From Deltaproteobacteria bacterium (GTDB lineage Bacteria; Desulfobacterota; Desulfobulbia; Desulfobulbales; SURF-16): a stretch of 64,000 nucleotides of DNA. The position numbers were made by a program, and so were the translations under genes. Under the pieces are notes generated by a model. The model saw only the letters and a program-made list of their open reading frames with translations. It made no database searches and was not told the origin of the DNA. Positions 36,858 to 53,608 of the stretch are shown one piece after another. Position 1 is the stretch's first letter, and every line of letters begins with the position of its first letter. The stretch spans positions 1,963-65,962 of the forward strand of contig JACRCD010000032.1 of NCBI GenBank assembly GCA_016219175.1. The letters run 5' to 3'.

Positions 36858-36875
36858 GGTTTGCCGGGGTGCTCG

Positions 36876-38117: not shown

Positions 38118-38120
38118 ATA

Positions 38121-39638
38121 TCAACCCGCCAGGGTAACCCGCAGCACTTCGGAAATGGTGGTAATGCCGTCTTTTACCTTACGCCAGCCATCCTGGCGCA
38201 AATTCAGCATGCCTTTTTCCAGGGCGGTCTGTCTGATTTTTTCCGTGCTTGATCTCAGGTGGATTTCCTGCCGGATTTTATCACTTACCGGCAGGTATTC
38301 AAAAATGGCTGTTCTGCCCTTAAAGCCGGTGTGCCTGCATTCATCGCAGCCGGCCCCGGCATAAAAGACGGTTGTCGCGGCCTCCTGCGGCGGAAGCTGC
38401 ATGGAGCGCACCAGTTTTTCCTCAGGAACTCTTTCCTCCTTGCAGTAGGGGCATATCTTGCGGACAAGGCGCTGGGCCAGCACGCCAAGCAGGGTGGAGC
38501 TGAGCAGGAAATTTTCAACGCCCATGTCCAGCAGCCTGGTAATGGCCCCGGGCGCGTCGTTAGTATGCAGGGTGCTGAAGAGCAGGTGCCCGGTAAGAGC
38601 CGACTGGATGGCGATATCGGCGGTCTCCCGGTCCCGGATTTCGCCCACCAGGATAATATCGGGGTCCTGGCGGACGATGGAGCGGAGGCCGTTGGCAAAG
38701 GTGAAACCGATCTTGGGGTTGACCTGGATCTGGTTGATGCCCTCCAGCTGATATTCGATGGGGTCTTCCAGGGTCATGATTTTGTATTCGGGCGAATTGA
38801 TCTTGTCCAGCGTGGTATAGAGGGTGGATGTCTTGCCGCTGCCCGTGGGGCCGGTGACCAGGATCATGCCGTAGGGCTGGGAGATAAGGGCGTAGTACTC
38901 ATCCAGCAGATCCTCGGGAAAACCGAGCTGGCGCAGGTCAAGTATCAGCGACTCACGGTCGAGAATACGCATGACCAGGCTTTCCCCATGGTGGGTCGGG
39001 ATGGTGGACACGCGGAAATCAATCTCCCGTTCACCGATTTTAAGCTTGATGCGCCCGTCCTGGGGACGGCGGCGTTCGGAGATGTCAAGCTTGGCCATGA
39101 TCTTGATACGGGAGATGATGGCGGCCTGGAGGCGCGGGGGCGGGGATTCCACCTCGCGCAGCAGCCCGTCCAGACGATAGCGGACCCGGAAACGGTGCTC
39201 AAAGGGCTCGAAGTGGATATCGCTCGCTTTTTCTTCAACCGCCTGCAGGATGAGCCTGTTTACCAACCGGATAATCGGGGCCTCCTGGGCCATGTCCCGC
39301 AGATGATTGACATCATCATCCACCTCGGCAACGATCTCAGAGATGTCCTTGCCCGCCTCCTCAATGATCGTATCAATGGACTGGCTGTTGATGCCGTAAA
39401 GCCGGTCAACGGCCTCCATGATATCATCAATACGACCGGGCTGGGCCACCACGCGATAGCCGTAAGCGAATTCAATGGTCTTTATGGTCGCGTAATCTTC
39501 AGGATCGGCAATAGCGATCTGTAATGTGTTATCCATGAGGTGCAGGGGCACGAATTTGCCCTGTTTCATGAATTTAACAGTGAGATTTTCCAGGGTCACC
39601 GCTTCGCGGGGATAATCATTAAATGATAATAGGGTCAT
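38121..39638 (-). CDS. gspE: Type II secretion ATPase GspE
   Basis: Walker A GPTGSGKTST, Asp/His boxes (DPDIILVGEIRD, TGHLLFSTLHTND) and tetracysteine CPYC...CDEC. N-terminal GspE_N/MshEN-type domain. Confidence 0.9.
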   Translation of the reverse strand: MTLLSFNDYPREAVTLENLTVKFMKQGKFVPLHLMDNTLQIAIADPEDYATIKTIEFAYGYRVVAQPGRIDDIMEAVDRLYGINSQSIDTIIEEAGKDISEIVAEVDDDVNHLRDMAQEAPIIRLVNRLILQAVEEKASDIHFEPFEHRFRVRYRLDGLLREVESPPPRLQAAIISRIKIMAKLDISERRRPQDGRIKLKIGEREIDFRVSTIPTHHGESLVMRILDRESLILDLRQLGFPEDLLDEYYALISQPYGMILVTGPTGSGKTSTLYTTLDKINSPEYKIMTLEDPIEYQLEGINQIQVNPKIGFTFANGLRSIVRQDPDIILVGEIRDRETADIAIQSALTGHLLFSTLHTNDAPGAITRLLDMGVENFLLSSTLLGVLAQRLVRKICPYCKEERVPEEKLVRSMQLPPQEAATTVFYAGAGCDECRHTGFKGRTAIFEYLPVSDKIRQEIHLRSSTEKIRQTALEKGMLNLRQDGWRKVKDGITTISEVLRVTLAG

Positions 39639-39691
39639 AGTTGAATCGTTATTTGGTGAAGTGCCTAAGGCTCTTAAAAAGTGTCCAAGGT

Positions 39692-39817
39692 GAGCCTATT
39701 GCAGAATAAGCATAAGAGTGCATCCTGTCATTTCGACCGAAGGGAGAAATCTAATAAAATCAAGGCAATTAAAGATTCCTCACTACGTTCGGAATGACAC
39801 TCAAGTTTATTCCGCCA
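39692..39817 (+). repeat. Nested-palindrome repeat, copy B (outer right arm degenerate)
   Basis: Inner hairpin gtcatttcgaccgaagggagaaatc (39727-) ... gattcctcactacgttcggaatgac (-39798). The outer left arm is gagcctattgcagaataagcataagag. Confidence 0.75.
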
Positions 39818-39830
39818 TAGCCACAAATCT

Positions 39831-39930
39831 GTCATTTCGAGATCACCACACACCTGTCATTTCGACCGGAGGGAGAAATCGTAAAGAAATTAACAGGGGG
39901 GAATGATTCCTCACATTCGTTCGGAATGAC
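39831..39930 (+). repeat. Inner-hairpin-only repeat copy B'
   Basis: gtcatttcgag...gtcatttcgaccggagggagaaatc ... gattcctcacattcgttcggaatgac. Confidence 0.7.
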
Positions 39931-40087
39931 GAATTTGATTTTTTTTTCCGGGCCATCAAACTTGAACGCAAATTTTGGTGTCAAGGTAAAATATGCCGAA
40001 TTCAGTCGGCCTGAATTTACAGCATTTATGTCGTTATGAGCTAGATTTTTTTTAAAAAAAGAATATAACTCATCAGGTATTAAGGTT

Positions 40088-40120
40088 GAAGCCTTCAGCC
40101 TATCCGTCTTGAATAGTTAC
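40088..40120 (-). repeat. Single arm of the 13251-13376 palindrome family
   Basis: gaagccttcagcctatc...gaatagttac is the reverse complement of gtaactatccag..gataggctgaaggct at 13252-13280, with a few differences. Confidence 0.55.
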
Positions 40121-40205
40121 TTTTGACTTTGGTTCCGTCGTTTCGGTCGTTGTGGCTTTATCGTTTCGACCGCAATCATGTTATTTAAACAATAATTATG
40201 ATATT

Positions 40206-40358
40206 GAGGTTCTTGCAAAATAAGCAAAAGAGTGCCTCCAGTCATTTCGACCGAAATCCTGTCATTTCGACCACAGGGAGAAATCTAATAAAATCAAGGC
40301 GATTAAAGATTCCTCACTACGTTCGGAATGACACACAAGTTCATTTTGCAAGAGGCTC
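40206..40358 (+). repeat. Nested-palindrome repeat, copy C (full length)
   Basis: gaggttcttgcaaaataagcaaaagag ... two gtcatttcgacc units ... agggagaaatct-loop-gattcctcactacgttcggaatgac ... ttcattttgcaagaggctc. Confidence 0.85.
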
Positions 40359-40370
40359 TATTGTAACCAG

Positions 40371-40430
40371 AATCCTGTCATTTCAACCATAATCATGTCA
40401 TTTCGACCAGAATCCTGTCATTTCGACCGC
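40371..40430 (+). repeat. Three exact-phase 20-bp direct repeats (aatcNtgtcatttcRaccNN)
   Basis: Units at 40371-40390, 40391-40410 and 40411-40430. The last unit runs into the left inverted repeat of the GIY-YIG unit. Confidence 0.85.
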
Positions 40431-40780
40431 AGGGAGAAATCTGATGCCTTTAACAAAACAATACTTTGTTTACCTGATCACCAACTGGAATCACAAAGTC
40501 ATGTATGTCGGCGTTACAAGCAACCTTATACGTCGCATTTACGAGCATAAAAATAAATTGTTTGATGGGTTCACAAAAAAGTACAAGGTCGATAAATTAG
40601 TATATTTTGAAGAAACCAGCGATGTTGCGGCCGCCATAGCCAGGGAAAAGGAGATCAAGAGGTGGCGGCGTGAAAAAAAGAACAATCTGGTGGTAAAGAT
40701 GAATCCCGACTGGCAAGATTTAAGCGCAACGTGGTCTGGTGGTTCCGCGGGGAAGATTTCTCCCTGCGGTCGAAATGACA
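40416..40780 (+). mobile_element. GIY-YIG ORF bracketed by perfect 27-bp terminal inverted repeats (candidate autonomous member of the repeat family)
   Basis: tgtcatttcgaccgcagggagaaatct at 40416-40442 is the exact reverse complement of 40754-40780. The left repeat supplies AGGGAG 8 nt before the ATG, and the right repeat encodes the ORF tail KISPCGRND. Confidence 0.6.
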
Positions 40781-40788
40781 AAAACTAG
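40444..40788 (+). CDS. Small GIY-YIG (URI-domain, COG2827-type) nuclease-superfamily protein
   Basis: 114 aa: YFVYLITNWNHKVMYVGVTSNLIRRIYEHK...KLVYFEETSDVAAAIAREKEIKRWRREKK. This gives GIY (YLIT) / YVG motifs, then R, E and the helical tail. Confidence 0.8.
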   Translation: MPLTKQYFVYLITNWNHKVMYVGVTSNLIRRIYEHKNKLFDGFTKKYKVDKLVYFEETSDVAAAIAREKEIKRWRREKKNNLVVKMNPDWQDLSATWSGGSAGKISPCGRNDKN

Positions 40789-40990
40789 TAGTTCGTTTCA
40801 TATAAATATTTACATTTTCCTATTCGGTTGAGTCTGCCAAAAGCGACTAGTGGAGCGGTTTTCACGGTTCGGCAAGCTCAGCATGGACGGTAAAGCTTTT
40901 AGCAAAACGGACCACTAGAACTTGGGCATTCATTTCGGCCATTACACGATTATTCTAACCATCTACGCCGTAATTACAACCATCAGCGCC

Positions 40991-41157
40991 GTCATTTCGA
41001 CCGCCTGCTCTGCCATTTCGACCATCGCCCACTTTGTCATTTCCGCCATCCGCGCCTCTGTCATTTCGACCGCCTACTCTGTCATTTCGACCGCAGGGAG
41101 AAATCTTTATAAAATATCGGCATAGTGATAGATTCCTCACCTGCGTTAGGAATGACA
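40991..41157 (+). repeat. Array of five gtcatttcgacc-type units (21-26 bp spacing) ending in an inner-hairpin copy
   Basis: Units start at about 40991, 41012, 41036, 41060 and 41081. The last continues as gtcatttcgaccgcagggagaaatc ... gattcctcacctgcgttaggaatgaca (to 41157). Confidence 0.75.
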
Positions 41158-41195
41158 ATTGCAGACTTTTGCTCAACAACCAATCTTGAACATTT

Positions 41196-41348
41196 GAGGC
41201 TCTTGCAAAATAAGCAAAAGAGCGCCTCCTGTCATTTCGACCAAAATCCTGTCATTTCGACCGAAGGGAGAAATCTAATAAAATCATGGCAATTAAAGAT
41301 TTCTCACTGCGTTCGGAATGACACGCAAGTTCATTTCGCAAGAGCCTC
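41196..41348 (+). repeat. Nested-palindrome repeat, copy D (full length)
   Basis: gaggctcttgcaaaataagcaaaagag ... gtcatttcgaccgaagggagaaatc ... gatttctcactgcgttcggaatgac ... ttcatttcgcaagagcctc. Confidence 0.85.
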
Positions 41349-41618
41349 ATTTTCAAAAGAATAAGCCGGGGGGGGTTGGTCGTATTTGAACTGCCCTGGT
41401 TTGTTTCAGCCAGCATAGTCTGAATTCCCTGTCCGGAACGCATGGGAAATTCCATGTGTGAAATTTCTCCCTGCTGTCCAGTGAAAGGTCTTCTTGTATT
41501 CTAACATTCTGATATTGTGTGTTATTGTTGCTGTTTGCTAAATGGAGAAGCGAGAGAAAAAACAAAGTTGATTGTCGTTGAGTGAGTGTGGCCCATTATT
41601 TGCTAAGTATTTTGAAAC

Positions 41619-42782
41619 ATGAAAAACATTGGCAGAGTCATCCTCATCATTTCCTTGTTTGTTGTTGTCGGGCTGAGTGCGGGAATTGCCCGGGCGGAAG
41701 AAGAAGCGTGTAATCCGCAAGCCCTGCTGCTGCAGATGATCAACGACGCCAGGGAAAATCCGGAGGCGACGCTGAAGCTTTACGGGCTTGATCCGAAGCA
41801 GATGGTCAAAAGAATTCCGGCAATGGCGGATAACATAAAAAACGGCATGGCTCCCCTGTATCTGGTGGAAAAGCTTAACATGGCAGCCGAAGCGCATCTG
41901 GCGGATATGAAGGCCAACAATTATTACGCAAGCGAGTCCCTTGACGGCAGGCTGCCCTATGACCGGCTGGCGGCTCAGGGGTATCTGCCGGTGGCGGTTG
42001 AGGAGTCTTTGGCCATGCTGGGTTTTCGCAATTTTGTTGAGCCCTGTCAAGCCGCGCGCATCATATTTTCCAACATGCTCCGCGACGAATGGGCCCAAAC
42101 CGACATGGCCGAGTTAAAGATATTGCAACCCGGTTTGTCCGACATAGGTATTTCCTTTGGCACGGGCACAATCCGCAACGGCCAATTTGTCTATAATTAT
42201 TATGCCGCTGTCTGTGATATTGCCGCAAATCTTCTCAGTGTTGTGGAAACAGAAGTGGTTCGGCAGGTGAGCGTTGCCCGCCGGGAGCCGGTAGCCTTTG
42301 CACAAGAAGCGGAAATTGATGTTGAGGAGCTGCTGGCGGAAAACCCTCAGTATGGAGAGCTGCTGAATACTTCTTATCCCGCCGTCTTGGAGGATGAAGT
42401 TCTTGTTGAAACGGCCCAGGTAGTGGGTGAGGAGATTCTTTCCGGCTCGGCGGCCCCGGATGTCGGGTTAGCTAAGGAACGTATCGAGGCAATGCTAGCC
42501 GCCAGCGGCAAAAAATATGACAGTGTTGTCGGGACATACCGCATGATGGTGACTGTTGAGGCAGTGGATGTCATGGCCGCGGCCCAAGCGCACCTCGGCA
42601 GGATTTTCGCCCGGGAACTGGGGGTGGCTGCATCGGAAAGAACCATGCTGAATCCCGGGGTGAACAGGATTGGGCTGCGGGTCATCAGCAGTAGCCCTGG
42701 TGAATGGTACAGCGATAGTAATAATCCCAGCGGTCATTATAATGTCATGCTGGTTCTGCTGTTTGCCCATGTTGCTGACTGA
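41619..42782 (+). CDS. Secreted protein with two CAP/SCP (YkwD-like) domains
   Basis: Signal peptide. LLLQMINDARENP...LNMAAEAHLADMKANNYYASESLDGRLPYDRL matches the bacterial SCP pattern, and a second, more divergent copy lies in the C-terminal half. Confidence 0.5.
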   Translation: MKNIGRVILIISLFVVVGLSAGIARAEEEACNPQALLLQMINDARENPEATLKLYGLDPKQMVKRIPAMADNIKNGMAPLYLVEKLNMAAEAHLADMKANNYYASESLDGRLPYDRLAAQGYLPVAVEESLAMLGFRNFVEPCQAARIIFSNMLRDEWAQTDMAELKILQPGLSDIGISFGTGTIRNGQFVYNYYAAVCDIAANLLSVVETEVVRQVSVARREPVAFAQEAEIDVEELLAENPQYGELLNTSYPAVLEDEVLVETAQVVGEEILSGSAAPDVGLAKERIEAMLAASGKKYDSVVGTYRMMVTVEAVDVMAAAQAHLGRIFARELGVAASERTMLNPGVNRIGLRVISSSPGEWYSDSNNPSGHYNVMLVLLFAHVAD

Positions 42783-42823
42783 AACCCTCTGATTTTGCAT
42801 GAGAAAATATTTATTTAAAAAAA

Positions 42824-42852
42824 TTGACCTTGCGTGCGGAACTTGCTAGAAT
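42824..42852 (+). promoter_or_regulatory. Near-consensus sigma70-type promoter
   Basis: TTGACC (42824-42829), 17-nt spacer, TAGAAT (42847-42852). It points into repeat copy E and the 43210 gene. Confidence 0.5.
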
Positions 42853-42882
42853 CGATTAATTAAAATTAAGAAAATTACAGGT

Positions 42883-43039
42883 GAGGCCCTTGCAAAATAA
42901 GCAAAAGAGAACCTCCGGTCATTTCGAAAAAAGTATCTCCTGTCATTTCGACCGAAGGGAGAAATCTTATAAAAGCAAGGCAATTAAAGATTCCTCACTA
43001 CGTTCGGAATGACACGCAAGTTCATTTTTCAAGAGGCTC
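42883..43039 (+). repeat. Nested-palindrome repeat, copy E (full length)
   Basis: gaggcccttgcaaaataagcaaaagag ... gtcatttcgaccgaagggagaaatc ... gattcctcactacgttcggaatgac ... ttcatttttcaagaggctc. Confidence 0.85.
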
Positions 43040-43126
43040 GGGTAAAACCTGTTTTTGTTCGGTGTCTCATCATTTATTAATAAAAGGAGGTGTAAAGGGG
43101 GGAAGATAAATAGTAGTAAAAAGCAG

Positions 43127-43150
43127 TTATAAAATTGCGCAATTTTATAA
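43127..43150. promoter_or_regulatory. Perfect 24-bp palindrome TTATAAAATTGCGCAATTTTATAA (candidate operator) 60 bp upstream of the S-layer-like gene
   Basis: The two 12-nt halves are exact reverse complements. The site lies between the putative promoter and the strong RBS AAGAAAGGAG. Confidence 0.5.
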
Positions 43151-43209
43151 GCTTAACAAGCAGTCAATGTAACCAAAAAACTAAATCAATAAGAAGAAAG
43201 GAGTAAGGA

Positions 43210-45018
43210 ATGTTTAAGAAAAGAATACTCGCAGCAGCAGCCTCTACCGCAATGCTCTCTCTCGTACTGTCCGGCGCCGCCCTGGCCGTAAACCGTGTTG
43301 AGGTCAAGGTAACATCAGAGCCCATCGCTTCAGGCGCCTCCTGCGACAAAGCCGGTGGTTTCTCTCTCGAGTTTGATACGTCTACAGCTCTGCTGGACGG
43401 TGACCAGATCACCATTGATACCGACTTCGTCAATGCCACCAATTTCACCGCCCTGTGCCGCGACATCGACCTGGTAATCGCCCCGGGCTCCGGCGCCAAC
43501 ATCACCAGCCAAGCAGACGGTGGTAACTCCACCAACGCTGGTTGGACCAACGGCTCAACCCCTGATGAGCTGGTTGACTCACCGGTTGTCTATTCCGGAA
43601 CCGCTCCGACCGACGTGGAAGAAGGTATTATCTTCCATGTGGTCGGCAACTCCGGCTCACAGCGTATCACCGTTGATGTTGTCGGTATTGATACAACAAC
43701 TGGCGCTGATGGCCGTGCTGTGAATGCAGTTGCTGGTAGCTTGATCGTCGGCCCTGGCGTGAATGACAAGATCATCGTCCGCTTCCTGGATCAGGATGTG
43801 AATTTCACCACCGGCGGCATCTTTGTTGACAACAATACAACTACGGACGACACCTATGACCAGCCTGCCGATCTGGAAGACAACACCCTGTGTATCAACG
43901 TCTCTTCCTGGAGCGAGTCAACCGTCAAGGGCAACATGGACTCCCGCAATGACAAGTACACCTTCATTCCGTCCAACCCGCAGATCGCCCATGTGGTCTC
44001 AGCTGCTGAATACGCCCTGTATGAATGCGCCAAGGCCAATTGCGGCAATCTGGCACTCGGTGCGACCTCACAGGCCGGTTCAAGCTGTGGCGCCTTTGAC
44101 AACGAGGATCCGGGCGCTGCCGGCACCGCTTACATGAACTCCTGCGCAACGGTTGACGATCACGCCAACAACCAGTTTATCATCCAGAAGACCAACGGTA
44201 CCTTTGATCTGGTTGACTACATCGTCACCGCCACCATCCTGGTTAACGGCGTGGAAGGCGACAACGGTGTGTACTTCACCAGTGACGCCATCTTAACCGA
44301 CGGCGCTTCCACCTCAACCGCCGCCTGTGCATTCACCAACGCCTCCGGTTCAGCAATCGGCGCAGCAAGCTACTTCCAGGCTGACGGCACCACGGCAACC
44401 CCGGTTGCCGCTGATACCGACTGCGACATCGCCGGTTCCGCCCGCGCCGTTGAGCTGACCACCCTGGGTCACAACCTGAACCTTGCAGCTAACGATGATT
44501 TCCTCTTCATCAATATTCCGGAGATGCATTATGATCTGGGCGAGGTTGAGGACGGCGATCAGGTATCCGTTCGCATTACCCTGACCAAGGCTCCATGCGG
44601 CGAGGTAACCACCCAGACCCTGTGTGTCGGTACCTTCCTTGAGGAATGTCCCACTTCAGCTGGTTCTGAGACCATGATCTTCCCGTACTTCACCAGCCCC
44701 GCCGCAACTGATGCATGGTGGGATGGCGTGGCTATCACCAACGAAAGCGCCACTGCAGGTACTGCTACCGTTACCCTGTATGAGCAGGATGGCGACTCGG
44801 CTACCGCTTCCATCGCTGTTGCAGCCCGCAGCATGTACGTCAACACCCTGACAGCCATGATTTCAGGCGGTGTGTTTACAGCTTCTTCAGGCAACGCAGG
44901 CACCATCGGCGATTCAAGATGCTTCCTCAGTGTATCCACTGATTTCGCAGCTTCGGGTTTTGCCATGATTGCCAACACGGCAACCGGTGAGTCCATGGGT
45001 TATACCTCAGGTAACTAA
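43210..45018 (+). CDS. Secreted Thr/Asn/Gly/Asp/Ala-rich surface (S-layer-like) protein
   Basis: Signal peptide MFKKRILAAAASTAMLSLVLSGAALA. The 602-aa product has no hydrophobic anchor and about a dozen N-x-S/T sequons. Strong RBS, and the gene is monocistronic with a textbook terminator. Confidence 0.55.
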   Translation: MFKKRILAAAASTAMLSLVLSGAALAVNRVEVKVTSEPIASGASCDKAGGFSLEFDTSTALLDGDQITIDTDFVNATNFTALCRDIDLVIAPGSGANITSQADGGNSTNAGWTNGSTPDELVDSPVVYSGTAPTDVEEGIIFHVVGNSGSQRITVDVVGIDTTTGADGRAVNAVAGSLIVGPGVNDKIIVRFLDQDVNFTTGGIFVDNNTTTDDTYDQPADLEDNTLCINVSSWSESTVKGNMDSRNDKYTFIPSNPQIAHVVSAAEYALYECAKANCGNLALGATSQAGSSCGAFDNEDPGAAGTAYMNSCATVDDHANNQFIIQKTNGTFDLVDYIVTATILVNGVEGDNGVYFTSDAILTDGASTSTAACAFTNASGSAIGAASYFQADGTTATPVAADTDCDIAGSARAVELTTLGHNLNLAANDDFLFINIPEMHYDLGEVEDGDQVSVRITLTKAPCGEVTTQTLCVGTFLEECPTSAGSETMIFPYFTSPAATDAWWDGVAITNESATAGTATVTLYEQDGDSATASIAVAARSMYVNTLTAMISGGVFTASSGNAGTIGDSRCFLSVSTDFAASGFAMIANTATGESMGYTSGN

Positions 45019-45067
45019 TTTTTAGTAACCTGTTTTTATTACCCGAGATTTACTGATGAAGTGCTAA

Positions 45068-45097
45068 GGGGGAGGCTCAGGCCTCCCCCTTTTTTTT
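45068..45097 (+). terminator. Rho-independent terminator
   Basis: GGGGGAGGC-tcag-GCCTCCCCC followed by T8, 50 nt after the 43210..45018 stop. Confidence 0.9.
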
Positions 45098-45127
45098 CCT
45101 GGTTTTCTTAACTTTTTGTCTTTCCCT

Positions 45128-45781
45128 ATGCGTTACACACATCTCATATCATTTCTGATTTTCACTGTTTTTCTGGCAGGGGGTGTTTACCCCTCTCTGG
45201 CCGGGCCGTATGTTCCCAGCCGCAATCTTGAAATAGAGACAGAGTTTTTGCAGGATTTACCGACCCGCAAAGGTGAGGCCGCGCCTACGAAAATCAGCTG
45301 GCTTGTCTCCCCCGCGGCTGCTGATGAACAGAGCGTCTCTCTGCAATTTTTTTTAAACCGTCAGCTTTCCGTCCCAGTGACAGCTGTGACGATTTTATTC
45401 GCGGGAGGTGTTACCAGGAAGGAACAAAGCGGTCAGACCACTGACGCCCCTGTTCATCTTCTTTTGAACTCCGGTTCCCCGGTGCCGGCCGATATACTGC
45501 CAATTATGCAGACGGAACGGGAAAAGACCTACCAGGTAGAGGAGAAGGCCGGCGGACGTAATTTTCTGCATACCTATCGCGTGGTGGAGACAGAGGTTTC
45601 CGCTCCAGAGGCCGTAAAAAAAGGGTGGCTGCGCAAGATTCCCCCGGCGGACGAGCGTTTGCAGTCTGTTACGGTTTACGATGACCGTAATCAACTGGTG
45701 GCTTTGCAGGTCTGGCCTGTCGGCGGCGAGTGGTGGCTTTATGAGGAAACACCCTACCGCCGTTCCTGGCTTGTCCAATAA
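45128..45781 (+). CDS. Secreted hypothetical protein
   Basis: ATG 45128, signal-like MRYTHLISFLIFTVFLAGGVYPSLAG. No recognisable motifs. Confidence 0.5.
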   Translation: MRYTHLISFLIFTVFLAGGVYPSLAGPYVPSRNLEIETEFLQDLPTRKGEAAPTKISWLVSPAAADEQSVSLQFFLNRQLSVPVTAVTILFAGGVTRKEQSGQTTDAPVHLLLNSGSPVPADILPIMQTEREKTYQVEEKAGGRNFLHTYRVVETEVSAPEAVKKGWLRKIPPADERLQSVTVYDDRNQLVALQVWPVGGEWWLYEETPYRRSWLVQ

Positions 45782-45807
45782 CTTTTTATCAGCAATCGAT
45801 TTTAATC

Positions 45808-48252
45808 ATGAATTTGAAGACTTTTTTTTGCCTTAGCGCAGCCTTTATAGCCTTGCCGTGTTTTTCCGCCAGCCCCGTAACGGCTGAAACCTACACTGCT
45901 CACCATATTCCGTGGTCCGGGTACTGGTGGCCGTACAGCTCGGGCGGCCTTGTCACGGGTGCAGGCTACTATGGTTCACCGGCCCCCATTGAGAAATACG
46001 AATTGCTGGAGGAGAGTTCTTATCCGGGTGAGCTGTCCCGATATTACCGGGACTACTATTATGATCCCGCGGCGCCGGACTGGTATGGCCACTGCAATTC
46101 CTGGGCGCTGGCCGCGATCTCCGAACATCTGGATATTATGCCCTCCTCGGAAGAAAATATCGTCTTCAGGGTGGGAGACAAGAAGGGGCTTCTGACCCTG
46201 GCCCATGAAAAGGATCTTGTCGAGCTCGGCGACGGAGCGAGCGCGGCTGTGTTCCACTACTGGCTTCTTTATTACCTGAAGGACCGGCAGCAGGGCTTTG
46301 TCGCTGATCTCGACCCCGGAGAGGAGCGCTGGAATTATCCCATCTATCAGGTTGCTATCCAGAGCAATCGCGTTGGCGGCACCGAGGAAATCAGCGCCAC
46401 CATCTATTATGCCACCGACAATGTTCATCCCGATTTTATCGGGGCGAAAAAAATTCAGAAGACCTACACCTATACCCTGCAGCTTGACTCCCAGGACAAT
46501 ATTATCAGTGGGGCGTGGACCAATGACAGTATAATCGATCATCCGGACCGACTGATGTTTCCCAAGGCCTTCCTGTCGGTTTCCCCTCTGCTTGATTATC
46601 AGGAGGTGCTGCGTATCGCCCAGTCGCGGGATGATCATCTTGAAAACGGAGATCAGCTTGTTTCTCTTCCACCGGGAAAATACAATCTGACATTGCTGGA
46701 TGTTGACCGGTATCAGCTTGTCTGCAATGCAGGTGATACTGTAGAGTTGGCAGTTGAGAAGGTTGTAGGTAGCCCGCTTGCCATGACTGCCGTTTTGATT
46801 GACGGTTCCGGCGCTGTGGTTGACAATGTTGAATTTGCCGGGGAAGGATCAGTTGTCTGGCAGTTTGCAGCGGCCAATCCCCCCTACGAACTGGAGCTGA
46901 GCCAGGCTGATTATTCGGCGCCCAATATTTACTCCCTGGCAGTGGATCTGGATAAGACGGCTAATTATCATTTCCCTTTTCTGCCCAAAAACGGCATGTG
47001 GTCAGGCTTTGCCCTGACCAACCCCTCTGATTCTCCGGTGGAACAGGTGATGCTGACCACCAATGACGAAAGCGGCAGGCCGCTGCACACGCTTTTAGGC
47101 CCGGAAACGCTGAATGGCGGGGAGAAAAAGGTCTTTCTTTTTTCCGCTCTGCCCTGGCGGCAGCATGAACTGGCGCAAACCTCCAGTCTGACCCTCCGGG
47201 CCGACGGCGAGGTGGAGGTTCTCAATCTTTTCGGGTCAACCACCCAGCTGGCCAGCCAGGTCCAGAAAATTAACGGGAGCAGTCAACTGATCTTTCCGGA
47301 AACAATACCGGAGCTTGACCCCAGGAGAAGTCTGGCCGCTACCATTATCAATGAGTCCTTTACCGGAGCCCAGGTCGACATCGCTGTTTTCAGCGCCAGC
47401 GGCATTTTGCTGAGTCAGCGTTCCGTCAACCTGGAAGGCAGGGAGCAGCTCAACATTAAACCAGGCGTCGCCCCTTTCTACTCACTGCCGGACGGAGGAT
47501 GGCTCAAGGCCACCACCCCTTCAGGCAATATTCTGTGCGGTTTTTATTATCTGAACGGGCCTGATCAGGCGGAAGGAATGTTTACCCTGCCGGCGGACAG
47601 TGAGACCAAGGTCATTCCGCACATCCCGCCGCCGGGAAACTGGTTTACCACGGTCACGCTGATCAACCCCAATGGCAGTGCAAACAGGATCGTCCTGCAT
47701 CCGGTTAAGGGCGGAGGGGATCAGACGCACGATCTGGTTGTCAACTTGAAACCCTTTGAGAAAAAAAATATTGAGTTGCAGGATCTCTTCGGCTTTGCGC
47801 CGGGTAATCCCCTTTATCACTCCATCGTGGAAATCTATGCGGAAAAGGACTTTGCCGGGTTTTACACCTATCAGAGCGCCTCAAAGACAGACAAGGCCAA
47901 ATATCCCCTGATTTCCACGGCAATGCTTGACTCTGAGCTGGTCATGCCCCATAATCCAGGGGCAAACGGCTACTGGTGGACCGGGGTGGGGGTTTTTAAT
48001 CCCATGGGGTCAATCCGGAACATAGAGGTGCTGCCCTATGGCAAACAGGGACAACTGCTGGCCGCTCAGAAAAAAAACTTCCAGCTTGCCGGCGGAGAGT
48101 ACAAGGTCTTTACTCTCAACGGGCTTTTCGGGGACATTGCCGCTGACATTTCCTTTATCAAATGCCGTCCTCTGGGAGATAATGACACCATCGGCGGATT
48201 TTATCTGTATGGCGGGAATGGCGAAAAGATGCTGGGCGGGGCTGTCATGTAA
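45808..48252 (+). CDS. Secreted protein: N-terminal transglutaminase-elicitor-like Cys/His fold plus four tandem roughly 100-aa modules
   Basis: Signal peptide. IPWSGYWWPY...SPAPIEKYELL...WYGHCNSWALAAI (Cys96, codon 46093-46095) ... ERWNYPIYQ ... DHPDRLMFP. Repeats then begin with FPFLPKNGMWSGFALTN, VIPHIPPPGNWFTTVTLIN and VMPHNPGANGYWWTGVGVFN. Confidence 0.6.
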   Translation: MNLKTFFCLSAAFIALPCFSASPVTAETYTAHHIPWSGYWWPYSSGGLVTGAGYYGSPAPIEKYELLEESSYPGELSRYYRDYYYDPAAPDWYGHCNSWALAAISEHLDIMPSSEENIVFRVGDKKGLLTLAHEKDLVELGDGASAAVFHYWLLYYLKDRQQGFVADLDPGEERWNYPIYQVAIQSNRVGGTEEISATIYYATDNVHPDFIGAKKIQKTYTYTLQLDSQDNIISGAWTNDSIIDHPDRLMFPKAFLSVSPLLDYQEVLRIAQSRDDHLENGDQLVSLPPGKYNLTLLDVDRYQLVCNAGDTVELAVEKVVGSPLAMTAVLIDGSGAVVDNVEFAGEGSVVWQFAAANPPYELELSQADYSAPNIYSLAVDLDKTANYHFPFLPKNGMWSGFALTNPSDSPVEQVMLTTNDESGRPLHTLLGPETLNGGEKKVFLFSALPWRQHELAQTSSLTLRADGEVEVLNLFGSTTQLASQVQKINGSSQLIFPETIPELDPRRSLAATIINESFTGAQVDIAVFSASGILLSQRSVNLEGREQLNIKPGVAPFYSLPDGGWLKATTPSGNILCGFYYLNGPDQAEGMFTLPADSETKVIPHIPPPGNWFTTVTLINPNGSANRIVLHPVKGGGDQTHDLVVNLKPFEKKNIELQDLFGFAPGNPLYHSIVEIYAEKDFAGFYTYQSASKTDKAKYPLISTAMLDSELVMPHNPGANGYWWTGVGVFNPMGSIRNIEVLPYGKQGQLLAAQKKNFQLAGGEYKVFTLNGLFGDIAADISFIKCRPLGDNDTIGGFYLYGGNGEKMLGGAVM

Positions 48253-48681
48253 TGCGTTTTCCCGGATTGTTGTTTGTCGTCGCGTGTTTCTCGAAACGCG
48301 AATATTCCGCAAGAGGAACAAGGAAGGAGGCGTATGTATGGGCGCCATTACCTTGGAGATACTGAAAAAGGCACCGAAAAGAAATCATAGATTGCGCGCG
48401 TCGGCACGGAGCCGACAATGTCCGAATCTTTGGTTCCGTAGCGAGCGGAGAGGTTAGCAGCCCAGAGTGATGCTGATTTTCTGGTAACATTCGCACCTGA
48501 ACGGAGCCTTCTCGATCATGGCGGATGATCATGGATTTGCGCGATCTGCTCCGCTGCCGGTTAGACGTTGTGAGCGAGGCAGGGATGCGTCCACGTCTGA
48601 TGGAACGGATCCTGAAGGAGGTTGTTTTCTTATATGAGGGTCGCCGCGGAACCATCCGTTAGAGCGGGATGGTTCCTGCGG

Positions 48682-49107
48682 TTATTTGGCCGGGGCAAAG
48701 GGATGTTCTCCCTCCTTCATTTGAATATACCACTTGCCTTTTTCCTTGACCCAGTATTGCATGGTCGGCGAGTCCTTGAAGACAAAGCCCATCATCAGCA
48801 CATCATATTTCACCATCACCTCCGCTTCCGTGCCGGAAGGCAGAATTTTGACCTGATCAATTGTCGAAGTGATAAAACTTATGGAATGTTTTCTGCGAAT
48901 GAAGTCATCCCTGCTTATCTGGGCTCGATACTTGGCATCATAGAGATCGTACACCTTGCCCCAGTCATCCTCGGTTTTGGCTTGGCTGAGTTCCGTCACC
49001 CTTGCCCTGAGCGCCTCTTCGGGATTCCCGGCAGCAAGCTGCAGGGTTGCGCAACCTGGTAATAAGGTAATGATGAGTATGGCGAAATACCTGGCACAGA
49101 AATTCAC
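48682..49107 (-). CDS. Small lipoprotein, unknown function
   Basis: Lipobox ITLLPGC, 141 aa. Overlaps the stop of the upstream gene (49104). Confidence 0.55.
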   Translation of the reverse strand: MNFCARYFAILIITLLPGCATLQLAAGNPEEALRARVTELSQAKTEDDWGKVYDLYDAKYRAQISRDDFIRRKHSISFITSTIDQVKILPSGTEAEVMVKYDVLMMGFVFKDSPTMQYWVKEKGKWYIQMKEGEHPFAPAK

Positions 49108-50333
49108 TTGAGATCCCCTTCCGTTGCCGGGGCATCAGCCGGTTTTTCGCTGCCATCGGCCGGTTGCTCACTTGCTGATGTGTCGTCCGTCTTCGTCGTC
49201 TGGTCCTTTTTATGGATAACGGTGATTTTTGCCGGGATCTCCTGGCCATTGTATTTCAATTTGGCTTTGATTTCTTCCCCTTCCGGTTCCCCGCTCTGTT
49301 TTATGAGATCCTGGCGTTGCTCCTTGATCTTCTGGTTGAACTCCTCAACAGAGTTGTAGACCGGCACCGTGGCTTTGACCGCGCTCGCTTCCTGCTTTTT
49401 TTGGGCCCGGATCGCCTGCATGTTTTCACGGTTTGAATCGGCGATCATCTGATCGACCATGACGTTATGCTGGTCAGCCTTGTCAAGGGCCACGGGATCA
49501 TTCTGCCTGATGACCAGCTTGCCGTCCTCTTTTGTAACGTTGACGGACAGGAAAAATTGTCCCTTGACTCCGGTGGGAACAATAACCTTATCCTGCTCCA
49601 GAGGGGCTTCGTTGATACTCTGATCGCTTGTTGTCACGGCAAGGTTGATGCCCGGCACCCCGTTAACCAGGGCCGCGGTTTCTTCCATGTCGAATTGCGA
49701 CAGGAGAACAATAATATCGGATTTTTCCTTCAGCTGGGGAACAAGCTCCTTGAGGGCGTCCTGGGCGGAAATGATGGTAAATCCTTTTACCTTTTCCGGG
49801 TCCACATAGAAATCAAATGAATTCTCCGGGAGCACGCCGACTATAGCGGCCCTGAAGCCGCCTATTTCCTTGATCACATAGGGTTTGAGCCATGTCTGCG
49901 GTGTTTCGCTTTTAATATTAGATGAAATAAAAGAAAAAGAGACCTTCTGGCTGGCATCGGCGAGATACTGGGCGCCGAAGTAGAATTCGCGTTGCCCGAG
50001 GTTCAGGGCGTCGAGCCCGAGAAAGTCGTAGATCTCAAAAGCCTGCCGGGCTCGAAGTTCCTGGTCCTGGCGGGCCGGGACGGCAAAAAGCCCGCCGCTG
50101 TCAACCATGAGAACGTTCTTGTTCGTTTCCTTTATATCCTCAAGCATTTTCGCCCGGCGCGAAAAACCGCCGGCATGGACGCCTCCGCACATCTGGGTGG
50201 GCATGAGCTTGCCGTTGATATTGCCTGTGTATATGATGGTGAGAGCCTTGTTTTCATCAGCCGGAGCGCTCGCAGCAAACAGGGCGACAAAAAAAAGAAC
50301 GAAAACGGTTACTTTGCGGATCATAAGCGTCAT
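49104..50333 (-). CDS. Secreted 5'-nucleotidase/UshA-like metallophosphoesterase-fold protein with degenerate metal motifs and a Lys/Glu-rich tail
   Basis: Signal peptide. LTIIYTGNINGKL, VLMVDSGGLF and LGQREFYFG occupy the positions of the D-x-H, GD-x-x and GNHE motifs. C-terminal low-complexity region. Confidence 0.4.
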   Translation of the reverse strand: MTLMIRKVTVFVLFFVALFAASAPADENKALTIIYTGNINGKLMPTQMCGGVHAGGFSRRAKMLEDIKETNKNVLMVDSGGLFAVPARQDQELRARQAFEIYDFLGLDALNLGQREFYFGAQYLADASQKVSFSFISSNIKSETPQTWLKPYVIKEIGGFRAAIVGVLPENSFDFYVDPEKVKGFTIISAQDALKELVPQLKEKSDIIVLLSQFDMEETAALVNGVPGINLAVTTSDQSINEAPLEQDKVIVPTGVKGQFFLSVNVTKEDGKLVIRQNDPVALDKADQHNVMVDQMIADSNRENMQAIRAQKKQEASAVKATVPVYNSVEEFNQKIKEQRQDLIKQSGEPEGEEIKAKLKYNGQEIPAKITVIHKKDQTTKTDDTSASEQPADGSEKPADAPATEGDLK

Positions 50334-50523: not shown

Positions 50524-52671
50524 ATGCCTGATGCAGCATGGTTTCGTGAAAATAGAAAATCACTGGAAATAGCAGGGCTCCTGCTTGTTATGGCGCTGGG
50601 GTTATTTTTGCGTCTTGAAGATCTCGCCGCCTGGAAGTCCGAACCGGAAAGGGCTTTTTATCAAGGGGAACCGCTGGTAACGACCCACGATGGTTTTTTC
50701 TATCTCTCCCTGGCCCGGGATCTGGTTGATGGAACCTATGATCCGGTTGATAAAAAACGGGCGGTGCCCGATACCGCTGTGCGTCCCCCCATCCCGCCTT
50801 TGCTTTCGGTCATGACCGCGGGTTTGCACAAAGTATTTAATTTTTCCTATAACTGGATCGGGGTTCTTCTTCCTCCTGTCCTGGGCATCCTGCTGGCACT
50901 GCCGATGTATCTGCTGGGGCGATTTTACGGCGGACCTGTCATGGGGATGACTGCCGCCGCTACCGCGCTTCTTTCCGAATATTACATGGGAAGAAGCACC
51001 CTCGGCTGGTATGATACGGATAGCCTCAATGTCACCTTTCCCATGGCCTGCGCCTATTGTTTTCTCTCTTTCGGAGTTGTGGAAGGCATGAAGCGCTATT
51101 GGTATCTGCTGGCCGGGCTGGTCAATTTTGTTTTTTTCATCTGGTGGTGGGACTCGGCTCCGGAAATTGTCGCCGGCATCTGTCTTGGCCCCCTGTTTCT
51201 GGCCCTGGTTTTTTTCTACCGGCCATCCCGTCGTGAGGGGCTGTATTTTTTCGCCGTTCTTTCGGTTTGTATTCTTGCGGTCCTGTATCGGCTGGGCTTT
51301 GATTATCCCATCAGGATTTTTAATCAGGTTATGGGGCAGTTCGGCTATATCAGCTTTCAGGAGGCCGGGGCTTTTCCTAATATGAGCATTACGGTCTCAG
51401 AGCAGGAACGGACCGGGCTGATGGAGATTGTCAGAGGCACCACGACGAATCTGGTCTCGTTTATTTTGGCCTGGGTTGGGTTTTTCTGGTTGGCTATCCG
51501 CAAACCCAAGCACAGTATTTTCCTCCTCATCCCCTTCGTGTTAAGCCTGCTTTCCATTTTTTACGCCAGGCGCTTTCTTATTTTCATGGCCCCGGTCAAT
51601 GCCCTTGGACTCGGTTTCGTCGTGGCTCAAGTCTGGGGCACGCGCCAGAAGTGGAAGATCTGCGGATACATCGCCCCGGCCCTTTTTCTTTTTTTCACGG
51701 TGCCGCCTTTTGTCACGGCCATGTCCAAGGTGAACTGGCCGAAATTTCATCCCCTGACGGTTACCGGCATGGATCTGGCCGGGAAGCAAACCCCTGATGA
51801 CGCCGTGGTCTGGGCCTGGTGGGATATGGGCTATCCGCTGCGCTACTGGTCCCAGCGGGGCACGATTTCCGACGGCACCTACCATGGCGGGGAGTTGGCT
51901 GTTTACAACGCCATCCCGTTCGCCACTAATGATTTCCGGCTAGCCGCCAACTTCATGCAGTTTTACGTGGCCCGCGGCAGTAACGGTATAAGCCAGTTGA
52001 TCACGGCTTTAGGGGGCAATAAACCGAGAAGCCTGACTTTTATCAAGGAGGTTCTGGCCGCGGGCCCGGAAAAAGGCCGAGAAATAATTACAGCCGAGTC
52101 CTTGCTTGCCCAAGGCGAATGGCGGAATACCGATGACTGGCTCAGGTTTTTCTTCCCTCCCGACCCCAAGCCGCTCTATCTTTTTCTTGAGTCCCGTCTC
52201 ATCGTTACGGATTATTGGTGGTACTGGCTCGGCACCTGGGATATCGCCAAACAGGAGGGCTTGCATCGTTTCTATAAGCCCTACACCAATGTCGAGATTA
52301 CTGACAAATACGCCCGCAACGCTAAAGGGTTGGATGTTGATCTGGTTGAGGGATTCGCCACCATTGAGGGCAAGAAATTTCAGCTCAAGGACGTCATATT
52401 GCGGGGCCAGGGCGATCAGTTTAAAAGACATAATTTTCATGACAAGGGGATCAATTTTGAAGTTTTTCTCCCGGTAAATTATGCGGTCCTGTCTGATCTT
52501 GATATTGCCGAATCGGTGTTTAATAAACTTTATCTGCGCCATATCGGGCCCAAGGAAGAGTATTTCCGTCCGGTTAACCTGTTGACCCCCGCTTATCAGC
52601 TCTGGGTGGTCAAGGGCGATCAGTTGCCCAAAAATAATGATCAGCAAAGGAAAGGTAAGGATGTTTCATGA
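50524..52671 (+). CDS. STT3-family oligosaccharyltransferase (PglB/AglB-like)
   Basis: 715 aa with many N-terminal TM helices. THDGFFYLSLARDL lies in the first loop, the WWDMGY motif (WWDYG type) is followed by TISDGTYHGG, and a soluble C-terminal domain follows. Confidence 0.8.
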   Translation: MPDAAWFRENRKSLEIAGLLLVMALGLFLRLEDLAAWKSEPERAFYQGEPLVTTHDGFFYLSLARDLVDGTYDPVDKKRAVPDTAVRPPIPPLLSVMTAGLHKVFNFSYNWIGVLLPPVLGILLALPMYLLGRFYGGPVMGMTAAATALLSEYYMGRSTLGWYDTDSLNVTFPMACAYCFLSFGVVEGMKRYWYLLAGLVNFVFFIWWWDSAPEIVAGICLGPLFLALVFFYRPSRREGLYFFAVLSVCILAVLYRLGFDYPIRIFNQVMGQFGYISFQEAGAFPNMSITVSEQERTGLMEIVRGTTTNLVSFILAWVGFFWLAIRKPKHSIFLLIPFVLSLLSIFYARRFLIFMAPVNALGLGFVVAQVWGTRQKWKICGYIAPALFLFFTVPPFVTAMSKVNWPKFHPLTVTGMDLAGKQTPDDAVVWAWWDMGYPLRYWSQRGTISDGTYHGGELAVYNAIPFATNDFRLAANFMQFYVARGSNGISQLITALGGNKPRSLTFIKEVLAAGPEKGREIITAESLLAQGEWRNTDDWLRFFFPPDPKPLYLFLESRLIVTDYWWYWLGTWDIAKQEGLHRFYKPYTNVEITDKYARNAKGLDVDLVEGFATIEGKKFQLKDVILRGQGDQFKRHNFHDKGINFEVFLPVNYAVLSDLDIAESVFNKLYLRHIGPKEEYFRPVNLLTPAYQLWVVKGDQLPKNNDQQRKGKDVS

Positions 52672-53608
52672 TAATCAGCTGGCCGTGGTTGTTCCGGCCT
52701 ACAACGAAGAGCATCTTATCGGCACGGTGATTGAAACGCTTCCCGGTTATGTCGACCATATCGTTATCGTTGACGATTGCAGCAAGGATAACACCGTTGC
52801 AGTGGTAAAAAAATATTGCGAGAAAGATGAAAGGGTTGTCTTGCTCGAACATGAAAAAAATCAGGGGGTTGGCGGCGCCATTGTCACCGGCTATAAATGG
52901 GCGATGAACAGGGATATCGAAGTCACGGTGGTCATGGCCGGGGATGCCCAGATGGATCCGGCCGATCTGCCGAATATCGTCCGACCCGTGTCCGAGGGCA
53001 AGGCTGACTACACGAAGGGAAACCGACTTTTCCATGGCGAGGCCTGGAAGGTGATGCCCAAATACCGCTATCTCGGCAATTCCTTTCTGTCGCTGTTTAC
53101 CAAGATTGCCTCGGGCTACTGGCATATTGCCGACTCCCAGACCGGCTACACGGCGATTTCGCTTGAGGCTCTCTATCTGCTTGACCTGGACAGTATCTAT
53201 AAACGGTACGGCATGCCCAATGATATCCTCATCCGCCTCAATACCCTGAATATGCGGGTAAAGGATGTGCCGATCCGGCCGGTCTATAATGTCGGGGAGA
53301 AATCCGGCATCCGGTTGCGCAGGGTGCTGTTTACCATATCCTGGCTGCTGATAAAGGGTTTCTTCCGGCGTATGTGGTTTAAATACGTCATTGAAGATTT
53401 TCATCCCCTGGTCTTTTTTTACATGATGGGGATTCTCCTGGCCCCTTTCGGCTTTTTTTTCGGGCTTTACCTTGTCTTTTACCGTCTGCTCCTGGGCGGT
53501 GTCGAGACGACCAGTGCGCTGTTTGCCGCTTTTCTCTATATCTCCGGTTTGCAGTCTCTCTTTTTCGCCATGTGGTTTGACATGGACTACAATAAAAATT
53601 TACGGTGA
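52661..53608 (+). CDS. Family-2 glycosyltransferase with C-terminal TM helices (polyprenyl-phosphate hexose synthase-like)
   Basis: LAVVVPAYNEEHLI, VIVDDCSKDNT and DAQMDP, plus two C-terminal TM helices. The start overlaps the oligosaccharyltransferase 3' end. Confidence 0.75.
   Translation: MFHDNQLAVVVPAYNEEHLIGTVIETLPGYVDHIVIVDDCSKDNTVAVVKKYCEKDERVVLLEHEKNQGVGGAIVTGYKWAMNRDIEVTVVMAGDAQMDPADLPNIVRPVSEGKADYTKGNRLFHGEAWKVMPKYRYLGNSFLSLFTKIASGYWHIADSQTGYTAISLEALYLLDLDSIYKRYGMPNDILIRLNTLNMRVKDVPIRPVYNVGEKSGIRLRRVLFTISWLLIKGFFRRMWFKYVIEDFHPLVFFYMMGILLAPFGFFFGLYLVFYRLLLGGVETTSALFAAFLYISGLQSLFFAMWFDMDYNKNLR

Follow-up and report, generated by a model that had tools for sequence, protein, structure and literature searches.

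Several described systems resemble, each in some respect, the locus treated here, which centers on four genes for secreted proteins (g1 to g4) in a 64,000-nt stretch of DNA from a Deltaproteobacteria bacterium (assembly GCA_016219175.1, contig JACRCD010000032.1, positions 1,963 to 65,962; this whole stretch is referred to as the window). With the Ca2+-dependent GP42 transglutaminase of the oomycete Phytophthora sojae (3TW5, PF16683), g4 shares a Pfam match, the top fold match and, presumably, the active-site Cys. In outline, an analogy may be drawn to the type IX secretion system (T9SS) of Bacteroidota with its C-terminal domain (CTD) and the enzyme PorU, in which a variable cargo carries a constant C-terminal beta-sandwich and a nearby Cys enzyme bears such a domain itself. 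PorU attaches its cargo to a surface glycan, and glycan genes adjoin the present locus. A similar analogy, again in outline, can be suggested for sortases with LPXTG pilins and for Tgl of the Bacillus spore coat, where a Cys acyl-transferase polymerizes an abundant structural protein. Surface-layer (S-layer) systems, for example Caulobacter RsaA on O-antigen, resemble the locus in an acidic, presumably abundant secreted protein encoded next to surface-glycan genes, whose gene has a strong promoter, a terminator and a long leader. Finally, NtrC two-component systems with accessory binding proteins have in common with the locus a HAMP kinase, a sigma-54 activator, a -24/-12 promoter and a PF04392 neighbor.

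Comparison with related genomes points to a conserved and regulated cell-envelope locus of Thermodesulfobacteriota, with the four genes as its core. The author of an earlier note on this DNA knew of no described system of this composition, and the searchable literature on DUF5719, on bacterial PF16683 and on S-layers of Desulfobacterales/Desulfococcus gave nothing on this locus and no published description of it; every family member found is annotated as "hypothetical." The four genes are arranged as follows.

41619-42782, plus strand: g1, 387 aa, secreted CAP/SCP-like protein (PF00188, 24.7 bits)
43210-45018, plus strand: g2, 602 aa, secreted all-beta multi-Ig protein with a C-terminal tag module, as seen from the open reading frame (ORF), the AlphaFold2 (AF2) model and profiles
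45116-45781, plus strand: g3, 221 aa with a TTG start, small secreted protein of no recognized fold
45808-48252, plus strand: g4, 814 aa, with a GP42-type Cys domain, a domain resembling pre-peptidase C-terminal (PPC) domains and the modules R1 to R4

By inspection, all four products carry an n-h-c signal peptide, with the sites ARA/EEE, ALA/VNR, SLA/GPY and VTA/ETY, respectively. Past residue 30, the maximal Kyte-Doolittle score does not exceed 1.45 in any 19-residue window of the four proteins, and therefore no membrane anchor is predicted. Coordinates and hydropathy are thus in agreement with the initial description of four plus-strand ORFs with signal peptides and without a membrane anchor.

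The relatives' scan used one genome per species. It returned 118 relatives; 80 loci were kept, together with up to 10 kb of flanking sequence, and 52 of these are full-length (24-68% identity). All window ORFs served as tblastn queries against the 80 loci. Counts for g1 to g3 refer to the 31 full-length loci in which 4.5 kb or more precede the g4 homologue, those for two downstream genes, d1 and d2, to 37 loci with at least 3 kb downstream, and those for an upstream sensor block to 26 loci with at least 9.5 kb upstream. Most of the 80 loci belong to Thermodesulfobacteriota (Desulfobacterales, Syntrophales, Desulfatiglandales, and Desulfobulbia), and about 15, mostly from Planctomycetota, have the Cys domain alone. 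The nearest relatives of the window are metagenome-assembled genomes (MAGs) of Thermodesulfobacteriota and Desulfobulbia at 63-68% identity.

Across these relatives, g1-g2-g3-g4 are colinear at identities of 25-68%: g1 was detected in 28 of the 31 loci, an ORF bearing the C-terminal module in the g2 slot in 30, and g3 in 22. Paralogous g4 copies with 24-26% identity, of which a genome sometimes holds two to three, keep the gene order as well. One locus (L013, positions 5190-9054) contains two tandem g2 paralogues, and two MAGs contain several separate copies of the entire locus with different g2 bodies (L041, L052, and L054 in one; L049 and L066 in the other). With such duplications, the system seems to be a reusable cassette. 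Synteny across relatives bears out the co-conservation implied by the "four-gene secreted module" of the earlier note; the genes do not form a single operon, and the conserved unit is larger than four genes.

The link between g2 and g4 is a module which occurs four times in g4 and once at the C terminus of g2. BLAST of one copy against another gave E values of 0.02-0.3, too weak to decide on their relationship, and a comparison of profiles was therefore needed. HHalign matched R4 to the g2 C terminus at 93% (E 2e-7), R1 to the g2 C terminus at 83%, R3 to R4 at 97% and R1 to R4 at 96%, as opposed to less than 13% for unrelated domain pairs in the same comparison. In addition, the AF2 models of g2 and g4 both match TM1070 (1NC7), a small beta-sandwich, with prob 1.0 and TM 0.64-0.68. 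Hidden Markov models (HMMs) of the module found g2 and g4 as the sole matches among 174 window ORFs. Profile and fold evidence together confirm that the g4 repeats and the g2 C terminus have a module in common, as had been noticed from the sequence at the outset.

Proteins in the g2 slot range from 257 to 665 aa and have a variable body, and the C-terminal module of ~110 residues is always kept; in distant paralogous loci the bodies differ and the module is still recognizable. Searched alone against 1.84 billion representative proteins, the g2 module matched 283 clusters, and in most of the matches listed, which are proteins of ~100-670 aa, it is situated at or near the C terminus. Tandem arrays of two to four modules occur in a few proteins, among them one (P0223) that adds PKD and Big_5 domains. 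Since the body of g2 varies while its C-terminal module stays, the idea that the Cys enzyme may recognize the structural protein via the shared module is strengthened. We propose that a variable body with a constant C-terminal domain, encoded beside an enzyme with four copies of this domain, corresponds to the organization of tag-and-enzyme sorting systems, which by analogy would be the most likely logic of the locus.

The enzyme itself, g4, is composed of the following parts.

45886-46632, plus strand: Cys domain, aa 27-275, with the Cys96 codon at 46093-46095
46633-46962, plus strand: PPC-like domain, aa 276-385, identified by an AF2 fold match to pre-peptidase C-terminal domains
46963-47280, plus strand: module R1
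47281-47604, plus strand: module R2
47605-47931, plus strand: module R3
47932-48249, plus strand: module R4

For PF16683 (TGase_elicitor), g4 scores 58 bits (cut-off 25); 33 of 33 homologues also match this family, and a PDB profile search retrieved 3TW5 at E 1e-13. Its AF2 model (pLDDT 90.2, pTM 0.81) has 3tw5_A, that is GP42, as the top Foldseek match (E 1e-12, prob 1.0, TM(target) 0.61). The 33 homologues, which are 803-852 aa long and have 38-63% identity, can be aligned over their full length, and therefore the architecture is fixed; weak Pfam matches to DUF5719 were obtained for 15 of them. Pfam, AF2, and profiles hence agree with the earlier description of g4 as a transglutaminase-elicitor-type Cys domain with four modules, corrected in that a PPC-like domain is located between the Cys domain and R1.

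Cys96 is invariant in all 78 sequences compared (24-63% identity). It opens a helix (96-105) and is aligned to residue 128, a Ser, of the 3TW5 chain; DHPD is among the motifs shared with this structure. The crystallized 3TW5 protein is presumably a C290S active-site mutant, in which case residue 128 would correspond to the catalytic Cys. GP42 is unusual in that its catalytic His is the residue immediately following the Cys, in a "CH" motif (PMC10318531). Among the 78 sequences, His97 is present in 21, mainly stand-alone domains of Planctomycetota, and 12 stand-alone domains, most of them from Planctomycetota, combine His97 with Trp150; in the Desulfobacterota proteins, residue 150 is a His. 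A His at either 97 or 150 occurs in 77 of the 78 sequences. As the two positions covary, it is suggested that His150 replaces the His of GP42 in g4 and serves as the partner of Cys96 in the window protein. For the catalytic triad assumed in the earlier note, the alignment gives neither a clean pass nor a clean fail: the nucleophile Cys96 is kept and the GP42-type His is replaced. A separate group of loci (L065-L080, mostly Planctomycetota) contains GP42-like domains without repeats, in which Cys-His is kept and a Trp occupies the position of His150; none of the Desulfobacterota locus neighbors was found there.

The presumed partner of g4, the g2 protein, has an acidic pI of 4.05 and a high content of Thr, Ser, Ala, Gly, Asp, and Asn; of its 13 Cys, about 10 are conserved among homologues. 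According to its AF2 model (pLDDT 83.9), it is an all-beta chain of Ig-like domains, laid out as a variable body, a linker and the C-terminal module at aa 487-602 (nt 44668-45015). Whole-chain PDB matches in the fold search were generic Ig tandems with TM <0.3. Neither g2 nor its 33 homologues matched a Pfam family, and g2 is also without an NCBIfam match. Two elements flank the gene.

42824-42852, plus strand: sigma-70-like promoter with an extended -10 element for g2 (TTGACC-17-TGnTAGAAT)
45066-45091, plus strand: intrinsic terminator after g2 (11-bp GC-rich hairpin followed by T8)

The predicted leader of g2 is ~350 nt long and includes one copy of a repeat element (42885-43039). The Shine-Dalgarno sequence, AAGGAG, is strong. 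Very high expression of g2 had been supposed from the sequence, and its hallmarks are found in this strong ribosome binding site (RBS), the sigma-70-like promoter and the strong terminator. A similar hairpin with a T-run follows the g2 homologue in ~20 of 55 related loci. g3 starts only 25-37 nt past the g2 terminator; there is no space for a promoter ahead of it, and therefore g3 and g4 are probably expressed through terminator read-through. In 49 of 102 clusters of g2 homologues the longest contig is only ~1.8-2.6 kb, compared to 3 of 120 g4 clusters. Four such g2 contigs were inspected and consist of essentially the gene alone, with leaders of 28-245 nt, a strong conserved RBS and ends 26-72 nt past the stop codon, which is what abundant monocistronic transcripts would give.

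The Pfam CAP match of g1 is marginal, its 24.7 bits standing against a cut-off of 21.1, and g1 homologues in two relatives (L081 and L091) also bear PF00188. g3, which is without a Pfam match, has the conserved motifs PGFPxPCDVLPV and WWLYEETPxRRSW, and g3-like ORFs are present in distant paralogous loci too; its ATG at 45128 is a more likely start than the listed TTG at 45116. PDB sequence searches with g1 and g3 gave no significant match.

The conserved unit extends beyond these genes to a sensor block and a promoter.

27982-28938, minus strand: periplasmic binding protein (PF04392 ABC_sub_bind, Pfam 83.5 bits), with orthologues of 37-48% identity upstream of g1
26582-28090, minus strand: HAMP/HisKA/HATPase histidine kinase (Pfam; 18 of 26 loci)
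25140-26525, minus strand: NtrC-type sigma-54 response regulator (Sigma54_activat 234 bits, Response_reg, HTH_8; 19 of 26 loci)
23070-25115, minus strand: TonB-dependent receptor with Plug and beta-barrel (Pfam; 20 of 26 loci)
41589-41603, plus strand: sigma-54 (-24/-12) promoter TGGCCCATTATTTGC, which starts 30 nt ahead of the g1 ATG

The PF04392 binding protein is the first gene of the block and is present wherever the flank extends that far; regulator orthologues are 54-65% identical. In most relatives, the block is located on the strand of g1 and directly upstream of it, with the receptor between the regulator and g1. In the window, it is inverted, and a type II secretion system (T2SS) operon and a repeat zone are situated between the block and g1. 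The receptor reached no specific subfamily cut-off and the regulator remained under every equivalog cut-off. The listed kinase ORF and the binding-protein ORF share 109 nt, and therefore the kinase probably begins at a later codon. Three further ORFs (539-3091, 3088-3411, and 3466-4569) were considered as members of the locus and rejected: their matches fall inside the relatives' kinase and regulator genes and are therefore paralogue cross-hits. Beside the TonB receptor gene, an ORF on the plus strand (21944-22972) combines an IS200-like Y1 transposase domain with a DnaA C-terminal HTH; located at the edge of the displaced block, it may be linked to the rearrangement or to the repeat elements.

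The sigma-54 motif (TGGCAC-N5-TTGC, with at most two mismatches and GG and GC fixed) was sought within 350 nt upstream of genes. Ahead of g1, 30 matches were obtained over 34 loci compared to ~2.3 expected from background density, and the other nine genes scanned had 0-8 matches each. The motif is at background level ahead of g2, g3, and g4 and is absent ahead of the receptor gene; over the whole window such motifs are not enriched (7 vs 11.7 expected), and significance is reached by the position-specific comparison across loci alone.

Downstream of g4, two genes on the opposite strand are likewise part of the conserved surroundings.

48682-49107, minus strand: d1, 141-aa lipoprotein with an invariant lipobox Cys19 (34 of 37 loci)
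49104-50333, minus strand: d2, UshA/SoxB-like metallophosphoesterase-fold protein with the Cys49 codon at 50187-50189 (26 of 37 loci)

No Pfam or PDB match was found for d1, even with a 13-sequence profile. d2 and its orthologues match the selenoprotein families NF041198 ("CxU") and NF049981 ("CxxU"); the window protein has Cys in place of selenocysteine (Sec) and scores under both equivalog cut-offs (154 bits with a cut-off of 275, and 53 bits with a cut-off of 140, respectively). Its PDB matches are N-domains of 5'-nucleotidases, and by inspection of the motifs, several phosphoesterase metal-ligand residues appear to be replaced. In ~30 orthologous loci (L004-L066), an in-frame TGA, often as CxxU, is aligned with Cys49 of the window, and therefore these ~30 orthologues are regarded as selenoproteins and the window d2 as their Cys homologue; Cys is found at this column in the window and in L060, L003, and L062. 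Gene callers split the selenoprotein orthologues, for example into 277 aa and 44 aa in L090. UshA-like families have been named as selenoproteins with no function assigned (PMC13188914, PMC2398784). Nothing on genomic context was seen in the UshA-like selenoprotein papers found, and the fixed genomic context of the family appears to be unreported. The 430 nt between g4 and d1 (48253-48681) contain no convincing ORF; the corresponding gap of L060 holds a DUF4143 ORF. Rfam gave no family in the whole window.

Two further groups of genes, both invoked in the earlier note, surround the locus in the window.

28987-39638, minus strand: complete T2SS operon with GspE, F, H, pseudopilins, J, K, PilM/N-type L, M, and D (Pfam)
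50524-52671, plus strand: STT3/PglB oligosaccharyltransferase (OST; Pfam)
50524-63898, plus strand: glycan locus with a PglB-like OST, GT2, GT4, AsnB-like, GT4, oxidoreductase-acetyltransferase, NeuB, UDP-GlcNAc 2-epimerase, and methyltransferase

The four genes are divergent from the T2SS operon across the repeat zone (39670-41500), as had been described. T2SS genes are present in 2 of the 52 full-length loci and additionally in L088, so that a T2SS adjoins g2-g4 in three lineages: the window, L003/L082 and an uncultured Desulfuromonas (L088). In L082 (47% identity), the orthologous operon ends in GspD immediately upstream of g2 on the same strand, and in L088 (35% identity), g2-g4 come after a T2SS operon and a cytochrome gene. 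The closest relatives (63-68% identity) have xerC-hslV-hslU upstream of g1 and no T2SS. The supposed T2SS link therefore stands only in part: adjacency is not conserved and is absent in the closest relatives, but its recurrence in three divergent lineages is not random. The cytochrome gene in L088 (8302-9468) is multihaem, with the T2SS secretin gene on one side and the g2 homologue on the other; no g1, g3, d1, or d2 was detected in this locus.

The suggested link to the OST did not hold, as it is syntenic in 0 of the 80 loci. Surface-glycan genes of other kinds follow the module in all six Pfam-annotated loci (window, L081, L082, L088, L090, and L091), and those of the relatives include sulfotransferases, methyltransferases, GT2, MBOAT, Wzm/Wzt, DegT, FdtA, and hexapeptide transferases. 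The protein-glycosylation-type locus of the window suggests a glycan with nonulosonic acid. T2SS export and PglB glycosylation are consequently regarded as lineage-specific possibilities outside the conserved system, and an envelope or surface role is favored. The repeat zone (39670-41500) together with 42885-43039 contains four copies of a ~155-nt element and many 20-24-nt tandem sub-repeats. Several copies carry the inverted-repeat arms TGTCATTTCGACCGNAGGGAGAAATCT / AGATTTCTC...GAATGACA, and a GIY-YIG ORF of 114 aa (40444-40788) is situated between perfect inverted arms of 27-28 nt.

These observations can be combined, tentatively, into the explanation that appears the most plausible of those weighed: an inducible envelope system, in which an abundant, tagged secreted protein is recognized and then processed, cross-linked or attached by a Cys enzyme. 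In this model, a ligand let in by the TonB receptor would be sensed in the periplasm, and receptor, binding protein, kinase, and regulator would form a sensing chain with g1, and probably the downstream genes, as its output. g2 would be produced in large excess, while the terminator would hold g3 and g4 low. The g2 protein would be exported, through the T2SS where one adjoins, and the modules of g4 would recognize its homologous C-terminal module. Through acyl transfer by Cys96, probably with His150, the enzyme could then cut g2, cross-link it, or join it to itself or to a surface glycan that bears amines, and the product would be a protein layer at the surface or in a matrix. A more specific version seems doubtful: a hitherto undescribed sorting or cross-linking system of Gram-negative anaerobes whose GP42-type enzyme, with its four TM1070-like copies, captures proteins bearing the same domain as a C-terminal tag and covalently polymerizes them or attaches them to a modified surface glycan, under a TonB-fed sigma-54 switch and with the periplasmic UshA-like selenoprotein as a required component.

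Several points weigh against the inducible envelope system. The action of g4 on g2 is deduced from domain homology, which is no proof of binding, and the His that follows the Cys in GP42 is not kept in g4, where N97 occupies a position that varies within the clade. Most loci are without an adjacent secretion system. As to the abundance of g2, the reading of the gene-sized contigs as transcripts is tentative, and codon bias is modest: the effective number of codons (Nc) is 41.1 for g2 and lower for GspE, so that the Nc comparison fails to single out g2. As to its regulation, the predicted g1 leader would extend only ~4 nt from the sigma-54 site, which is unusual, and no Shine-Dalgarno sequence is visible (41589-41621); either the g1 mRNA is near-leaderless, or transcription and translation start elsewhere. 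Furthermore, an uptake system would explain the TonB receptor, the binding protein and the redox-type selenoprotein no less naturally than a structural one.

TonB-dependent acquisition is accordingly the main rival, although on balance an unlikely one. Here, g2 would be a secreted or surface protein that captures a ligand, in the manner of a hemophore or metallophore or for sulfur or selenium, and delivers this cargo to the receptor; g4, g1, g3, d1, and d2 would process or release it, and binding protein, kinase, and regulator would induce the system on substrate. This would account for the receptor gene, which in 20 of 26 loci shares the strand of g1 and immediately precedes it, beside a binding protein and a two-component system, for the membership of d2 in the UshA/SoxB superfamily with a CxxU redox-type motif in its orthologues, and for the ~10 conserved Cys of g2; secreted binders of scavenging systems are typically very highly expressed. 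The receptor, however, falls into no specific substrate subfamily, no conserved inner-membrane ABC permease or ATPase is encoded at the locus, and g2 gave no match to a family that binds metals or ligands. In the closest relatives and in the Desulfuromonas locus, g2 and g4 occur with no receptor nearby. Moreover, a variable body with a constant tag, four copies of this tag in the enzyme, and flanking glycan genes would be left unexplained.

Less likely again is a constitutive S-layer unit, close to what the earlier note had envisaged, in which g2 would form the lattice, with export by the T2SS, N-glycosylation by PglB, docking via the module and cross-linking by g4. The acidic composition of g2, its richness in Thr, Ser, Ala, Gly, Asp, and Asn, and its strong expression signals are in line with this, as are the T2SS adjacency in three lineages and the PglB and NeuB/NeuC glycan locus in the window. 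g2 also contains 12 sequons (N-x-S/T) compared to 7.3 expected (p ~0.05), two of them with an acidic residue at -2 (D/E-x-N-x-S/T), but these are poorly conserved, most being kept in at most 12 of 33 homologues. The OST and the T2SS, as seen above, are not constant members of the locus (0 of 80 loci; 2 of 52 full-length loci and L088). g2 matched no S-layer family and no anchoring domain, and S-layer folds reached only prob 0.06-0.23 in Foldseek. Its 13 Cys are atypical for S-layer proteins, and sigma-54 and two-component control suggests inducible rather than constitutive production.

A periplasmic module for envelope maintenance or redox functions, without any surface product, is improbable. 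According to this explanation, g2 would be an abundant periplasmic protein, g4 a cysteine peptidase or amidase, and d2 a thiol/selenol oxidoreductase-like protein, all induced by an envelope signal. Sec signal peptides are the only export signals evident, most loci have no adjacent outer-membrane translocon, and lipoprotein and selenoprotein partners are encoded alongside; cell-wall amidases are also found among papain-like folds (PMC10318531). Against this stand the co-occurrence of PKD and Big_5 surface domains with the module, the T2SS operons immediately upstream in L082 and L088, the adjoining surface-glycan loci and, weakly, the resemblance of the tandem Ig-like architecture of g2 to adhesins and pilins. 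That the genes are neighbors by descent only, without functional coupling, and the module a common beta-sandwich is very hard to believe: such domains are widespread and BLAST between the copies is weak (E 0.02-0.3), but gene order is held down to 24% identity and in paralogous copies within genomes, and the module profiles and folds are specific, with only g2 and g4 matching among the 174 ORFs.

The inducible envelope system can finally be set against the described systems named at the outset. g4 differs from GP42 in having N97 and a His150 that is invariant within its clade, and in carrying a PPC-like domain and four beta-sandwich modules besides; this bacterial protein is encoded in a conserved, operon-like locus, and its activity is predicted from sequence. 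The locus would be the first bacterial context for the GP42 fold, which has been studied so far in oomycetes. The UshA-like family, recognized from sequence only since 2008, gains a conserved context and thereby testable partners. S-layer systems differ in that g2 has no homology to their proteins and no anchoring domain, is Cys-rich, and is predicted to be under sigma-54/two-component control. The difference from usual NtrC systems is that the relatives' loci place a TonB receptor directly after the regulator on the same strand. The locus would thereby tie an outer-membrane receptor to surface remodeling in organisms that are central to sulfur and carbon cycling and to syntrophic consortia, and judging from the gene-sized contigs, genes of the g2 type seem to rank with the more strongly transcribed hypothetical genes of sediment Desulfobacterales, Syntrophales, and Desulfuromonas.

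To the T9SS there is no sequence relation: the enzyme is of the GP42 type and not of the gingipain type, and PorU matches the g4 model only at prob ~0.2. Por_Secre_tail had no Pfam match at E <=1 in 33 g2 homologues, and no T9SS genes were found among the scanned window ORFs, which lie beyond the first 21 kb. Sortases and Tgl belong to other enzyme families, g2 has no LPXTG-type motif, the envelope is Gram-negative, and the fold matches of g2, whose Ig-like tandem weakly recalls Gram-positive pilins and adhesins, are generic (TM <0.3). If the proposed recognition of g2 by g4 is true, the enzyme-tag pair would represent a Gram-negative counterpart to both sortase/LPXTG and PorU/CTD.

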